Source: Escherichia phage LF82-41
DNA length: 64,000 nt
Strand: one strand, 5' to 3'
Sequence record: PV660463
Shown here: positions 19,847-38,590 of the stretch, piece after piece
How the letters are laid out: the number at the start of each line of letters is the position of its first letter
How positions within the stretch are numbered: position 1 is the stretch's first letter
The notes under the pieces: generated by a model
What the model was told of the DNA's origin: nothing
The model's database searches: none
Seen by the model: the letters and a program-made list of their open reading frames with translations, nothing else
Translations under genes and position numbers: made by a program

Positions 19847-20317
19847 TTAATCATGTTTCCACACCCCATCGGTATTTGACCAAAGCCGCTGATTATCTGA
19901 TCCTCGCCACAGCTTTTTAGTCGGAAGATTTTTCTCATACTTCCCATCAATAATAACATCAACATATTTAAGCATTTCTAGTTGTTTAATATCTTCAAAC
20001 TTATATCCTGTCCACAACCAAATGCTTTTATTGGGATAAAGATTTTTTACTGTTTGAGCAATGCAATGAATAACAACTCGGTTATCAGGATAGAGAGGGT
20101 CACCTCCGGTTATAGTTAATCCTTCTATATAATCATTATTCAAATATTCAATTAATTGTTCTAGTGTTTCACCAGTGAATGGAATACCATTTCTAGCATT
20201 CCATGTTGATTTATTATAACACCCTTCGCATTTATGCAAACAACCCGTAACGAAAAGAACGACCCTGCATCCCGGGCCATTCACAAAATCGCAAGGATAA
20301 AATCTATCATAATTCAT
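19847..20317 (-). CDS. nrdG: anaerobic ribonucleotide reductase activating protein (radical SAM)
   Basis: 156 aa; CxxxCxxC-type cluster (FVTGCLHKCEGCYN); directly downstream of nrdD. Confidence 0.9.
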   Translation of the reverse strand: MNYDRFYPCDFVNGPGCRVVLFVTGCLHKCEGCYNKSTWNARNGIPFTGETLEQLIEYLNNDYIEGLTITGGDPLYPDNRVVIHCIAQTVKNLYPNKSIWLWTGYKFEDIKQLEMLKYVDVIIDGKYEKNLPTKKLWRGSDNQRLWSNTDGVWKHD

Positions 20318-22131
20318 TGGTGTTTAACCCTATGCATGATTTCTTTATTTTTACCGAGATTAAATCCGCGTTCGTTCGGATTTCCTAAATAACCGCATGT
20401 TCTTCTTATGGTGTTCATCTTTTTAGGATCAGTTTCTCCGCAAACTGAACAAACAAATCCGTTTTCAGTAGGAGTCATTTCATGGGTACTTCCACATGTA
20501 AAACATTTATCCACTGGCATATTAACACCAAAATAATCTAAATGTTGTGCAGCATAATCCCAGACGGCCTCAAGTCCCTTTAAATTGTTTTTCATATCTG
20601 GAAGTTCAACATAAGAAATGTGACCACCTGTCGCAATGAAATGATATGGCGCTTCACGAGAAATCTTTTCAAACGGAGTAATATTTTCTTCTACTGAAAC
20701 GTGGAAACTGTTAGTGTACCAGCCTTTATCGGTAACATCTTTTACACTTCCATATTTTTCTGTATCGAGTTTACAGAAGCGATAACAAAGGTTTTCAGCA
20801 GGAGTAGAATACAAACTAAAAGCAAAACCAGTTCTTTCAGTCCACTGTTTAAGATGAGCATTCATTTTAGTTAAAATTTCTTGTCCAATATCACGACCAA
20901 CAAGAATATTCAATTCATGAATACCGATGTATCCTAAAGACACTGAACTTCTACCGTTTTTAAATAACTCAATTATATCGTCATCAGGTTTAAGACGAAC
21001 CCCGAATGCACCTTCTTGGTAAAGAATAGGAGCAACAGTCGCTTTAACTCCTTTTAAGGAACTAATTCTACATATCAAAGCTTCAAAACATAAATCCATT
21101 CGTTCATTGAATAATTCAACAAATTTCTGTTCATTGAACTGTGTTCCAATATAAGAATCTAATGCGATGCGAGGAAGATTCAGTGTTACAACACCGAGAT
21201 TATTACGTCCATCAAGAATTTCATTACCAGTCGAATCTTTCCATACGCTCAAGAAACTACGGCAGCCCATTGGAGAAACCGGAACTGAAGAACCAGTAAT
21301 AGCTTTATTATTCTTAACCGAAATAATGTCAGGATACATTCTTTTGCTTGCACATTCTAACGCAAGTTGTTTAATATCATAGTTCGGATCATCTTTATAA
21401 AGATTAACACCTTCTTCAACAAACATAACAAGTTTAGGAAAAATAGGAGTTATCCCATCACGACCAAGACCTTTAATGCGGTTTTTAAGAATTGCCTTCT
21501 GAATCATTCGTTCAGTCCAATCGGTTCCCGTACCAAATGTAATTGTTACAAAAGGCGTTTGTCCGTTTGAACTAAAGAGAGTATTTACTTCATATTCATA
21601 AGCTTGGAATGCATCGTATACGTCTTTTTCTGTTTTAGATTGAGCATAATTCAACGCATCAGCTATTTGCCATTTTTCTGCATCCTCAATATGTTTTGCA
21701 TAGGTGCGTTTAACATAAGGAGAAAGTACTTTATCTACATTAGCAAAAGTCGTTCCGCCGTATTGATGTGAAGCAACCTGTGCAGTAATTTGTGCCATAA
21801 TTGCAGTAGCAACACCAATCGATTTAGGCGTTTCAATTTGAGCATTGCCTAATTTAAATCCATTCTCAAGCATCCCCTTTAAATCGACTAAACAGCAATT
21901 AGTAAATGGAAGAGCAGGAGAATAATCAATATCATGCATATGAATGATTCCGCTTTCATGCGCATTCATAATAAAAGACGGGACCATATTTTTGGCAATG
22001 TGCTTAGACACAATACCAGCCATAAGGTCCCGTTGAGTTGGAAAAACACGAGAATCTTTATTAGCATTCTCGTTTAAAAGGTCTTTATTAGTTTTATGAA
22101 TTAATCCTTCAATTTCTTTTTCAATTTTCAT
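20314..22131 (-). CDS. nrdD: anaerobic ribonucleoside-triphosphate reductase, intron-less
   Basis: 605 aa; C-terminal CxxC...CxxC zinc site and glycyl-radical region; continuous ORF. Confidence 0.95.
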   Translation of the reverse strand: MKIEKEIEGLIHKTNKDLLNENANKDSRVFPTQRDLMAGIVSKHIAKNMVPSFIMNAHESGIIHMHDIDYSPALPFTNCCLVDLKGMLENGFKLGNAQIETPKSIGVATAIMAQITAQVASHQYGGTTFANVDKVLSPYVKRTYAKHIEDAEKWQIADALNYAQSKTEKDVYDAFQAYEYEVNTLFSSNGQTPFVTITFGTGTDWTERMIQKAILKNRIKGLGRDGITPIFPKLVMFVEEGVNLYKDDPNYDIKQLALECASKRMYPDIISVKNNKAITGSSVPVSPMGCRSFLSVWKDSTGNEILDGRNNLGVVTLNLPRIALDSYIGTQFNEQKFVELFNERMDLCFEALICRISSLKGVKATVAPILYQEGAFGVRLKPDDDIIELFKNGRSSVSLGYIGIHELNILVGRDIGQEILTKMNAHLKQWTERTGFAFSLYSTPAENLCYRFCKLDTEKYGSVKDVTDKGWYTNSFHVSVEENITPFEKISREAPYHFIATGGHISYVELPDMKNNLKGLEAVWDYAAQHLDYFGVNMPVDKCFTCGSTHEMTPTENGFVCSVCGETDPKKMNTIRRTCGYLGNPNERGFNLGKNKEIMHRVKHQ

Positions 22132-36618: not shown

Positions 36619-37077
36619 CTAGATTTTAATCACTGCTTTAGAAGCTTTTCCTGGTAGTCGTTTACTGTTAATAATAGCCATTCTGCATTGAAGAGTCTTC
36701 ATTTTGAATGCTGGATTTTCGCGACAGACTGTAAGTCCTAACCAAAGATTTCCGTCAGTTATTTCTAAACGGCCTGGGCGATATTCGACACCTTCGACAA
36801 AATCTTCATCAACATCTGGACGTGCCGGCATTGATAAAAATTCTGCAACTTCTTTAACATGATTTTTTACTTTATGAAATAATTCAAAAACGTAATTCTC
36901 ATCTATTTCTCTCTGGATGGCACGATCTAAGAGATGTTGAGAATACTTGATATGAAAGCCTGGTAGTCCAAGAGACTTTGCAGCATCTTTTATACCGGCA
37001 TTTATTTTGCGGAACTCCGTTTCAAAGATTCGACGGAGTTTATTACGGCGGATAAAAACTTCCGAATTGATAGTCAT
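36619..37077 (-). CDS. regB: endoribonuclease RegB
   Basis: MTINSEVFIRRNKLRR...LQCRMAIINSKRLPGKASKAVIK matches T4 RegB; start at internal Met. Confidence 0.9.
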   Translation of the reverse strand: MTINSEVFIRRNKLRRIFETEFRKINAGIKDAAKSLGLPGFHIKYSQHLLDRAIQREIDENYVFELFHKVKNHVKEVAEFLSMPARPDVDEDFVEGVEYRPGRLEITDGNLWLGLTVCRENPAFKMKTLQCRMAIINSKRLPGKASKAVIKI

Positions 37078-37085
37078 TTTGATTT

Positions 37086-37137
37086 CTCCTCTAGTTGACA
37101 AGTCTATAGTAACACAACTAGAGGAGAAGTAAACTAC
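37086..37137 (-). promoter_or_regulatory. early-promoter/stem-loop cassette with 12-bp inverted repeat
   Basis: ctcctctagttg...caactagaggag; minus-strand GTTTAC-17-TACTAT; upstream of regB. Confidence 0.55.
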
Positions 37138-37433
37138 TCTTTGAAAGGAATTAACTTTTTAACTGCTTTAGATACTTCGTCACGAACCTGATGGAAGTTC
37201 TTGAGCTGTTCAAGGCGTTGTTCGTAATACGCAATCTCATCTTCTTCAAGACAATCGTCAGCGTCTTCTTTCAGATATGCCTTGTACTCATTAAAGAGGG
37301 CCCATAGGCGGTTCTCAAAGTCATCAAGGCTTTGAATTTTCTTGTGCTTCGGAACAAGGCCAAAAGGATTGCTTTCAGTTATGCGTCTAGATGCTTCATA
37401 ATGAGTTCCAAAGCCTGATAGGATTTGAGCCAT
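37134..37433 (-). CDS. hypothetical protein (99 aa)
   Basis: ORF. Confidence 0.55.
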
Positions 37434-37699
37434 TAGTATTTTTCCTCAGGTCGAAATACTGCACGACAGGCCCACATGCTGGCTTCTTTTAGATGTTGCT
37501 TAGCATACTTAAGAGCCTGTACTGCATCCATATCTTCTTTGGTTTGTTGCTCTGTTTCATTTTCTTTCAAGATATATGCTTCTTCAATCAGAGCATCAAA
37601 CAACAATCCAAGACGGACTTCTGCATCTTTAATAGCGTTCACTTTACCGATTTTATCGTCGGTATGTGGCTTGTAGCCTTTAATATCTTCAATCGACAT
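37433..37699 (-). CDS. hypothetical protein (88 aa from internal Met)
   Basis: ORF 37433..37867 overlaps 37689..37913; internal start avoids overlap. Confidence 0.5.
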
Positions 37700-37913
37700 A
37701 AGGAATTTCCTCATCGGTGGCAAGGTCATATTCGACCAATTGGATAGGCTCATTAATACCATATCCACGTACAGTGATATCAGTTGCCGGATAGTTTCCA
37801 GTAATATCACCCATTCTAAATGCTTCAATGAATGATTGCTCGCCTGAGCAACTAAACCAGGCGGCAAAACATTTTAAAACATCTTCAGACCCTTCTATAA
37901 TCAATTTAGCCAT
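37689..37913 (-). CDS. hypothetical protein (74 aa)
   Basis: ORF. Confidence 0.5.
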   Translation of the reverse strand: MAKLIIEGSEDVLKCFAAWFSCSGEQSFIEAFRMGDITGNYPATDITVRGYGINEPIQLVEYDLATDEEIPYVD

Positions 37914-38275
37914 TATAGGCTCTCAGTAAAGGTACGAGCGATAACGTCACGCTGTTGTTCCGGCGTCAGAGAGTTAAAGCGAACTGCATAACCGGATACA
38001 CGGATGGTCAACTGCGGATATTTTTCTGGATGCTTAACTGCATCTTCCAGAGTTTCACGACGCAGAACATTAACGTTCAGGTGTTGACCACCTTCAATTT
38101 TAACTTTAGGTTGATGTTCAATTTCAATTTCACGGGCATTCAAACCGTAGAAAATTTCCGGGTCTACAATAGCGTCTTCTTTAAAAGTCTTAGAGACGAT
38201 AATCCGGGCTTGAGCACCGTCTTCAAAATAAATAGTGCCTTTATGTGCACCTTCAAGAATTTGATATGCTTTCAT
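37913..38275 (-). CDS. autonomous glycyl-radical cofactor (GrcA/YfiD-like)
   Basis: 120 aa; C-terminal ...[29 protein letters not shown] carries the glycyl-radical RVSGY motif. Confidence 0.8.
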
Positions 38276-38281
38276 ATAACC

Positions 38282-38590
38282 TCAATTAGAAAATAAATTT
38301 ATCCAAGTTTTTTCTTTAATCAAAAATGGGTCAGAATTAAACGCCATTAAACTTTGAGTGATTAATCCCTTAAATGGCCCATCAATAAATTCCATTTTGA
38401 AATGCGGAATACTAGTCATCAACCGTGCATTAGGAGCAGTACAAAGAACCTGCTGCCCTGCGAACGGACCTTTAGTCAAACGGTATCGTTTAGGTTTAAA
38501 ATGGTAAATCTCGTAATTTTCTACAAGAGCCCTTTTATTGCATACTGGGCTGTTATAACAATACTCAAAAACTTCAATAGTGGTCATCAT
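38282..38590 (-). CDS. hypothetical protein (102 aa)
   Basis: ORF. Confidence 0.55.
   Translation of the reverse strand: MMTTIEVFEYCYNSPVCNKRALVENYEIYHFKPKRYRLTKGPFAGQQVLCTAPNARLMTSIPHFKMEFIDGPFKGLITQSLMAFNSDPFLIKEKTWINLFSN

Follow-up and report, generated by a model that had tools for sequence, protein, structure and literature searches.

Pyruvate formate-lyase (PFL) that has been cleaved by oxygen can be restored by spare-part proteins, only two of which have been validated (PMC8683613). These two, Escherichia coli YfiD (GrcA) and bacteriophage T4's Y06I, are given a glycyl radical by PFL activase and make the cleaved enzyme active again (work of Knappe's group; Andorfer et al., 2021, PMC8683613). 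YfiD is disordered over residues 1-60 and structured over residues 61-127, and its N-terminal half aids binding to cleaved PFL and efficient activation (PMC8683613). The activase installs the radical on an RVSGYAV peptide, not on the RVCGYLG loop of class III ribonucleotide reductases (RNRs) (PMC13450708). A gene of this kind lies on the minus strand of a 64,000-nucleotide (nt) stretch of Escherichia phage LF82-41 (sequence record PV660463; the whole stretch is called the window below). It is the RB69-type (Mosigvirus) ortholog of T4 vs.6, the gene for Y06I, an identification that is correct and already known. The comparisons made here indicate, in addition, that vs.6 is a mosaic: an old phage homolog of grcA in which codons 61-117 appear to have been replaced by grcA DNA from an Escherichia chromosome. 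The combined reading, a vs.6/Y06I ortholog that acts as a spare part and owes its mosaic structure to host replacement of the 3' half, is given a probability of about 0.85.

The two halves of the gene differ sharply in their relation to the host (Table 1). In a codon alignment, codons 61-120 of the window copy encode residues 100% identical to E. coli GrcA 68-127, and only 8 of the 180 nt differ (95.6% identity), all of them synonymous and six of the eight GC-to-AT. Other phages come closer still, with 3 differences in 180 nt in T4 and 1 in 183 in phage OES_C-2; relatives reach 99.5% identity, and of 752 phage records, 638 match the last 183 nt of E. coli grcA at 95% identity or more. For the window 3' half, the best identity across all 5426 complete E. 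coli genomes searched is 95.6%, and Citrobacter reaches only 89%. Codons 1-60, on the other hand, share roughly 30% amino-acid identity with E. coli GrcA (judged by eye from alignments) and 50-88% with the orthologs of T4, Jiaodavirus, Karamvirus, Slopekvirus and Pseudotevenvirus, among which 25 alignment columns are invariant. The phage-type 5' half has no megablast match in the E. coli genomes, and its 60 residues returned five matches from a database of 5.8 billion proteins, all phage-like or fragments, which says nothing about a bacterial donor. The N-terminal homology expected of the GrcA/YfiD family is still detectable between profiles of the phage and bacterial N-terminal halves (hhalign probability 92.8%, E=4.1e-7, residues 19-60 against 25-67). 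Judging from these alignments, the 5' half is an old, phage-specific GrcA N-terminus common to several T4-like genera, and the gene itself is a long-standing resident of T4-like phages.

Table 1. Features of the vs.6 locus and of the anaerobic RNR genes in the window.
Feature	Position	Strand	Description
vs.6 / phage grcA open reading frame	37913..38275	-	From the list of reading frames: ATG start, 120 amino acids, TAA stop; autonomous glycyl-radical cofactor, T4 Y06I ortholog
Phage-type 5' half, codons 1-60	38096..38275	-	Diverged homolog of the GrcA N-terminus; GC 36.1%, phage-typical
Recombination breakpoint interval	38090..38099	-	Gene nt 177-186, codons 59-62; maximum chi-square
Escherichia-type grcA segment, codons 61-117	37925..38095	-	Structured glycyl-radical domain; amino acids 100% identical to E. 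coli GrcA 68-124; GC 48%
Glycyl-radical loop RVSGYAV	37982..38002	-	Codons 92-98; codon of radical glycine G95 at 37991-37993; translation and motif scan
Phage-specific tail	37913..37924	-	Last three codons GAG AGC CTA plus TAA; vs.5 ribosome-binding site and overlapping start TAATG; reads ACTGAGAGCCTATAATGGC
Shine-Dalgarno GAGG	38280..38283	-	4 nt before the vs.6 ATG; overlaps the vs.7 TGA stop (38282-38284); sequence TTGAGGTTATATG
nrdG	19847-20317	-	
nrdD	20314-22131	-	605 amino acids, uninterrupted

The boundary between the halves was located by the maximum chi-square method in triplets of the window copy, E. coli and either Jiaodavirus or Karamvirus (chi2 46.8 and 58.7, respectively); neither value was reached in 5000 permutations (p<1/5000). 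With Karamvirus as the third sequence, informative sites to the left of the breakpoint are E. coli-like in 12 cases and phage-like in 56, and those to the right in 41 and 4. The position coincides with the border between disorder and structure in YfiD, and also with the onset of nucleotide homology between host and phage. The preliminary description of the locus had taken the high similarity to the bacterial protein as a sign of recent horizontal acquisition. This holds for codons 61-117, which are of Escherichia-type DNA, and fails for codons 1-60, which are old and phage-specific. Capture of the entire gene from E. coli in recent times, with subsequent very fast divergence of the N-terminal half, would accommodate the identical C-terminal 60 residues with their 95.6% DNA identity, as well as the N-terminal homology that can still be recognized. 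Such a history is nevertheless scarcely credible, as the N-terminal half is common to Jiaodavirus, Karamvirus, Slopekvirus and Pseudotevenvirus, whose 3' halves reach only 75-84% identity to E. coli and differ from it by 26-29 synonymous codons. The break at codons 59-62 is sharp, and an amino-acid divergence of ~70% upstream is incompatible with a synonymous divergence (dS) of 0.02-0.20 downstream if both halves are of one age.

An explanation without any DNA transfer would ascribe the near-identity of the 3' halves to convergence or conservation, with strong selection acting in a common host on both the protein and its codons. The domain is obliged to fit PflB and PflA of the host, the codons of GrcA are those optimal in E. 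coli, and Pseudotevenvirus keeps 100% identity over the same 60 residues while giving no signal of transfer. However, Pseudotevenvirus encodes these residues with a dS of 1.98, and E. coli and Salmonella, at 84% nt identity and a dS of 1.02, differ in ~25 codons of the segment, nearly all synonymously; E. coli and Citrobacter amalonaticus differ in 13 (dS 0.36). Krischvirus and T5-like coliphages, which share the host, are only 71-74% identical to E. coli in this segment, and the matches follow the host genus: the phage copies track Escherichia rather than Citrobacter, and those of Jiaodavirus track Klebsiella. Convergence or conservation alone is therefore very hard to accept. From these comparisons, the synonymous sites of the segment are evidently not frozen, and constraint on protein or codons does not explain the near-identity.

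Composition agrees with the division of the gene. The guanine-plus-cytosine (GC) content of the 3' half is 47.8%, compared with 37.3% for the window, which places it in the top 0.4% of the phage's 60-codon windows, and CTG serves for four of its six leucines (11% phage-wide). The comparison of codon usage with phage genes, proposed in the preliminary description and run here phage-wide, thus finds a host-like 3' half beside a 5' half of phage-like GC content (36.1%). Most of the T4- and RB69-type copies examined depart from E. coli in codons 118-120, whereas codons 61-117 hardly vary. Among these copies that of the window is the most drifted, with six private synonymous changes, mostly GC-to-AT, none of which occurs in the 5426 E. 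coli genomes. Since they are mostly GC-to-AT, the private variants are read as drift within the phage and not as the mark of a different donor, and the window 3' half resembles an older graft that has been ameliorating toward the composition of the phage.

Neighbour-joining trees of the 3' segment place T4- and RB69-type phages together with Escherichia in 431-444 of 500 bootstraps, and the phages as a whole are monophyletic in none of 500. The grcA gene of E. coli shows no discordance between its 5' and 3' parts relative to Citrobacter or Salmonella, and for this reason the transfer is taken to have run from host to phage. The host-like GC content and codon use, together with the absence of the phage 5' half from the E. 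coli genomes, point to the same direction. As for timing, the genes flanking vs.6 are saturated between Mosigvirus and Tequatrovirus (dS 0.8-2.3), whereas the 3' half has a dS of 0.10-0.27 between these genera and 0.02-0.20 to E. coli; the Escherichia segment must therefore have entered, or been refreshed, long after the two genera split.

A second case is found in the Klebsiella phages of the genus Jiaodavirus. In their copies the 5' half is of the same phage type, the boundary again lies at codon 61 and the tail is phage-specific, but the 3' halves are 89-93% identical to grcA of the Klebsiella variicola/pneumoniae cluster, the best match among 84 hosts; other sampled hosts reach at most 90%, and E. 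coli 81-86%. The grouping of Jiaodavirus 3' halves with Klebsiella has a bootstrap value of 373/500, and the copies carry the Klebsiella-type motif LLDAVEH instead of LEDAVKH. As this mosaic is independent of the Escherichia one, this half of the gene must have been replaced from a host at least twice in the subfamily, making the process recurrent and not unique. The copies of Slopekvirus, Pseudotevenvirus, Karamvirus, Krischvirus, T5-like and Aeromonas phages, compared with the same 84 host genes, are near-identical to none of them (at most 84%), so that replacement is not universal.

How often the E. coli phages themselves acquired the segment is harder to say. Phage copies L096 and L098, which have different 5' types, differ by 13 synonymous codons upstream and by one downstream, a pattern that fits repeated conversion by the host or one conversion with later spread among phages. 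A single host-to-phage replacement in an ancestor of the E. coli T-even phages, carried afterwards between Tequatrovirus and Mosigvirus by phage-phage recombination, is possible but doubtful. T4-like phages recombine freely, and such a history would agree with the identical 5' boundary in the two genera, with differences that are additive through the E. coli sequence (3 in T4 and 8 in the window giving 11) and with a dS of 0.44 in the 5' half, lower than the 0.8-2.3 of the flanks, as would follow from movement of the complete gene between genera. On the other side stand the upstream divergence of L096 and L098 beside their near-identity downstream, the Klebsiella-type 3' half of Jiaodavirus, and the several copies that are 99-99.5% identical to present-day E. 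coli. Repeated overwriting of the radical-domain half by grcA of the current host genus, from Escherichia in Tequatrovirus and Mosigvirus and from Klebsiella in Jiaodavirus, through host-templated gene conversion, is moderately probable. No earlier report of a host-tracking mosaic in the 3' half of vs.6 was found in the literature searched, the coverage of which was incomplete; the mosaic is a modest new observation on a gene whose call is known.

T4-type phages have very active homologous recombination and fragment host DNA. Host fragments bearing grcA may recombine with vs.6 where identity suffices, and homologous recombination or gene conversion would then replace the 3' part but leave in place the phage 5' half and the three final codons, which serve translation of the downstream gene vs.5. 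The conversion tract would be bounded by the end of homology at codon 61 and by the vs.5 ribosome-binding site. Once phage and host sequences are similar, conversion would reinforce itself.

The gene call behind this history is secure. The preliminary description had proposed a GrcA/YfiD-type gene, and the reading frame it gave is exact; the strand, which it omitted, is minus. The best NCBIfam model by a wide margin is GrcA (TIGR04365, E=5.7e-47), and among solved structures E. coli GrcA matches best (Protein Data Bank, PDB, 6OWR, E=1.4e-42), followed by the C-terminus of PflB. Pfam PF01228 Gly_radical matches with E=1.9e-18, covering residues 59-101 only, and no other domain was matched; phrog_1209 is matched over positions 1-120 of 121 (E=1.1e-62). 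In BLASTP, the check suggested with that description, the protein is 73% identical to E. coli GrcA over 101 residues and shares 112 of 120 residues with T4 vs.6 (93%, E=1e-84). The protein is small and stand-alone, as are members of the GrcA/YfiD family (TIGR04365; IPR011140), and the glycyl-radical motif quoted earlier is indeed present near the C-terminus, with the PFL-type loop at residues 92-98. No RVCGYLG-type loop and no NRDD domain match, which would indicate a class III RNR (NrdD), were found in it. Its similarity to T4 vs.6 and phrog_1209 extends over the full length, and its position between vs.7 and vs.5, on the same strand in the denV-regB early region, is that of the T4 gene.

Comparison with the individual relatives brings out what is particular to the window copy. 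It shares with T4 vs.6 the length of 120 residues, the position in the order vs.8-vs.7-vs.6-vs.5-vs.4-regB and an E. coli-type 3' half. Of the eight substitutions that separate the two, seven are N-terminal, and the eighth is R73 in the window, as in E. coli, in place of H73 in T4. The window copy is more drifted from E. coli at synonymous positions (8 changes, 2-3 in T4), and its genome is an RB69-like Mosigvirus, not a Tequatrovirus. E. coli GrcA has the C-terminal 60 residues and RVSGYAV loop in common with it, and the N-terminal homology at the level of profiles; however, the N-terminal half of the phage protein is 7 residues shorter and its gene lies in an early-gene cluster with translational coupling, whereas the bacterial gene occupies the ung-grcA locus. 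Residues 57-120 also align to residues 696-759 of PflB (E=2.9e-26; PDB 1H16), the piece that a spare part replaces. In contrast to this PflB domain, a segment of which reads MNREMLLDAMEN, the window protein stands alone at 13-14 kDa and is clearly closer to GrcA.

A patchwork of phage- and host-type segments that arose by intragenic recombination is known for cyanophage psbA and similar auxiliary metabolic genes, reportedly from Zeidner et al. in 2005 and Sullivan et al. in 2006. Both cases concern a phage copy of a host metabolic gene turned into a patchwork by recombination with that gene. Unlike in psbA, the exchange in vs.6 affects a single domain, has a fixed 5' boundary, takes place in lytic enterobacterial T-even phages that degrade host DNA, and has left the converted half essentially identical to that of the host.

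By analogy with its validated relatives, the vs.6 protein would likely be activated by host PflA and rescue oxygen-cleaved PflB, a proposal drawn from its 93% identity to Y06I and the 100% identity of its C-terminal domain to that of YfiD. PflA, the radical-SAM (S-adenosylmethionine) PFL activase, would take a hydrogen from G95 in the RVSGYAV loop, and the C-terminal 60 residues would insert into PflB cut by oxygen at G734, in which residues 734-759 are lost. The repaired enzyme would again convert pyruvate to acetyl-CoA and formate. The diverged N-terminal half, which retains the conserved skeleton of the family, probably helps in binding cleaved PFL and in activation, as in YfiD. For the phage, the gain may be that fermentative ATP and acetyl-CoA production keeps running in infected cells under micro-oxic, gut-like conditions, and that formate remains available to formate-dependent anaerobic RNRs such as E. 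coli NrdD; for the phage NrdD, dependence on formate is an assumption. The preliminary description had already noted that T4 carries a YfiD-type spare part, in line with the reported restoration of oxygen-cleaved PFL by Y06I (Wagner et al., 2001, as cited in PMC8683613).

The protein might instead redirect host metabolism as a decoy, by titrating PflA of the host or by blocking cleaved PFL. The N-terminal half, which governs the efficiency of binding and activation in YfiD, is strongly diverged in the phages, as a decoy would allow; yet it keeps the family's skeleton, the catalytic half is identical to that of the functional host protein (nonsynonymous divergence 0), and T4 Y06I is reported to restore PFL activity (PMC8683613). 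A decoy is, on balance, highly improbable. It is also extremely unlikely that the vs.6 protein is a spare part for oxygen-cleaved phage NrdD in place of PFL. The window also encodes NrdD and NrdG, an early comparative paper proposed a role in nucleotide metabolism (PMC1524935), and the homolog in phage phiAS5 directly follows nrdD-nrdG. Against this, a motif scan finds the PFL-type loop RVSGYAV in vs.6 but RRTCGYLG in the window NrdD, and PFL activase discriminates between loops of the two types (PMC13450708). In addition, the domain matches that of E. coli GrcA completely and shares 80% identity with the C-terminus of PflB, and T4 Y06I is reported to reconstitute PFL itself (PMC8683613).

A connection between vs.6 and the anaerobic RNR genes is plausible in functional terms, as formate, which PFL yields, serves formate-dependent class III RNRs as reductant (Mulliez et al., 1995, listed in PMC13450708); coupling to PFL has been raised (PMC13450708). 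The preliminary description placed the gene near the nrdDG module. The gap to nrdG/nrdD is 15.8 kb, so that "near" is too strong; an estimate from the T4 map, as opposed to a count in the window, puts ~30 genes between them. Physical linkage of the kind seen in Aeromonas phage phiAS5 is absent from the window. In phiAS5 the GrcA-like gene (2501-2878) starts within the end of nrdG, after nrdD-nrdG and before nrdC/nrdH, and in Krischvirus FL37 and FL20 it lies one or two genes from nrdC. The window nrdD has no counterpart of the T4 group I intron with its I-TevII homing endonuclease (T4 locus positions 816-1850); in a BLAST map, window position 21593 joins 21596.

Several points weigh against the combined reading or narrow it. 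The protein scores 159.1 bits with TIGR04365 (residues 18-120 against model positions 23-126), below the trusted equivalog cut-off of 170, because its N-terminus is divergent. Its function is transferred by analogy, from T4 Y06I across 8 amino-acid differences and from E. coli YfiD, and the literature read contained no demonstration that vs.6 benefits any phage in vivo. In the E. coli phages, a single event with spread between Tequatrovirus and Mosigvirus is not separable from independent events. The Klebsiella donor match of only 89-93% means that this event is older or that the true donor is unsampled. Krischvirus and T5-like coliphages have no host-identical segment, and infecting E. coli is therefore not sufficient for replacement. 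The segments are short (180 nt, ~45 synonymous sites), which makes dates and event counts rough. A further event inside Mosigvirus was considered, in which the window 3' half would be anomalously diverged from RB69, and was dropped: the 9 mismatches in 180 nt lie at the upper end of the distribution, yet other segments have as many (Poisson p=0.32 relative to the regional mean).

The genomic setting of vs.6 is that of T4 and RB69, with the co-directional order denV ... vs.8-vs.7-vs.6-vs.5-vs.4 ... regB, vs.1; Pfam confirms regB and denV in the window. Flanking genes have a dS of 0.03-0.13 to RB69 and 0.8-2.3 to T4, making the window RB69-like, and the nearest database records are Mosigvirus. 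A ribosome-binding site is annotated at the position of the vs.6 Shine-Dalgarno sequence in the record of phage 55, and at the position of the vs.6 tail in phages 55, Matisse and Miller. Scanning 36.5-40.3 kb for promoters and terminators gave no excess of sigma-70-like sites (9, with 10.5 in shuffles). The gene looks translationally coupled within its cluster, and no dedicated promoter is assigned to it.

Megablast finds vs.6 in 784 phage records and tblastn finds relatives in 1587, which include many genera of Straboviridae, T5-like Demerecviridae and Aeromonas phages. The copy of phage vB_EcoM_TU01 is 100% identical in protein to that of the window. In many records the homologs bear the label "autonomous glycyl radical cofactor", and hundreds of phage genomes have an identical or near-identical gene under the name GrcA. 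PHROGs v4 still lists phrog_1209 as "unknown function" despite the biochemically characterised T4 Y06I, an annotation gap that spreads the name "hypothetical protein", as in many of the megablast matches. In Aeromonas phage Riv-10 and the T5-like ESCO40 the GrcA-like gene sits inside a tRNA cluster, directly after tRNA-Met. Two copies are possibly decaying: a Jiaodavirus-like one from IMG/VR (L121), of 362 nt, has its 5' half out of frame through a frameshift or sequencing error, and a Karamvirus-like one (L105) stops early at ...RTFT*. Pseudomonas phage PsgM02F (OR584013.1, 165 kb, stated host Pseudomonas coronafaciens) has a copy 93% identical in protein to that of the window, which is odd given a 3' half of Escherichia DNA; the host label or the history of the isolate may deserve a check.

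Two observations concern the neighbouring genes. Two genes downstream of vs.6, window positions 37433-37699 (minus strand) encode an Acb2/Tad1 hairpin domain (Pfam PF24729, E=1.4e-17) and match T4 vs.4, which we take to be the Acb2 sponge that binds cyclic nucleotides and counters the cyclic oligonucleotide-based antiphage signalling system (CBASS). The listed reading frame of this gene, 37433-37867 with a TTG start and 144 residues, is probably over-extended, since the T4/RB69-sized gene begins MSIEDI. Between regB and vs.4, positions ~37020-37260 have 36-60 mismatches per 180 nt to RB69 in surroundings that are ~97-98% identical. The patch looks like a swap of small genes, with a window frame at 37134-37433 (phrog_2037) and RB69ORF117c in RB69.

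The gene call in itself adds nothing, vs.6/Y06I being a textbook-level T4 gene with homologs annotated in hundreds of phage genomes. The evolutionary pattern is a clean, datable case of a virulent phage in which part of a gene was replaced from the host chromosome, observed independently with two host genera, and it cautions that high identity to a host protein does not equal recent acquisition of a whole gene. It also provides a simple experimental means to measure the natural frequency of recombination between lytic T4-like phages and the DNA of their hosts. The locus supports the idea that T-even phages protect the host's supply of formate from PFL, which could feed their own anaerobic ribonucleotide reductase. 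If the radical-domain half has indeed been overwritten repeatedly, a strictly lytic phage that degrades the DNA of its host would be keeping an auxiliary gene in concerted evolution with that host.

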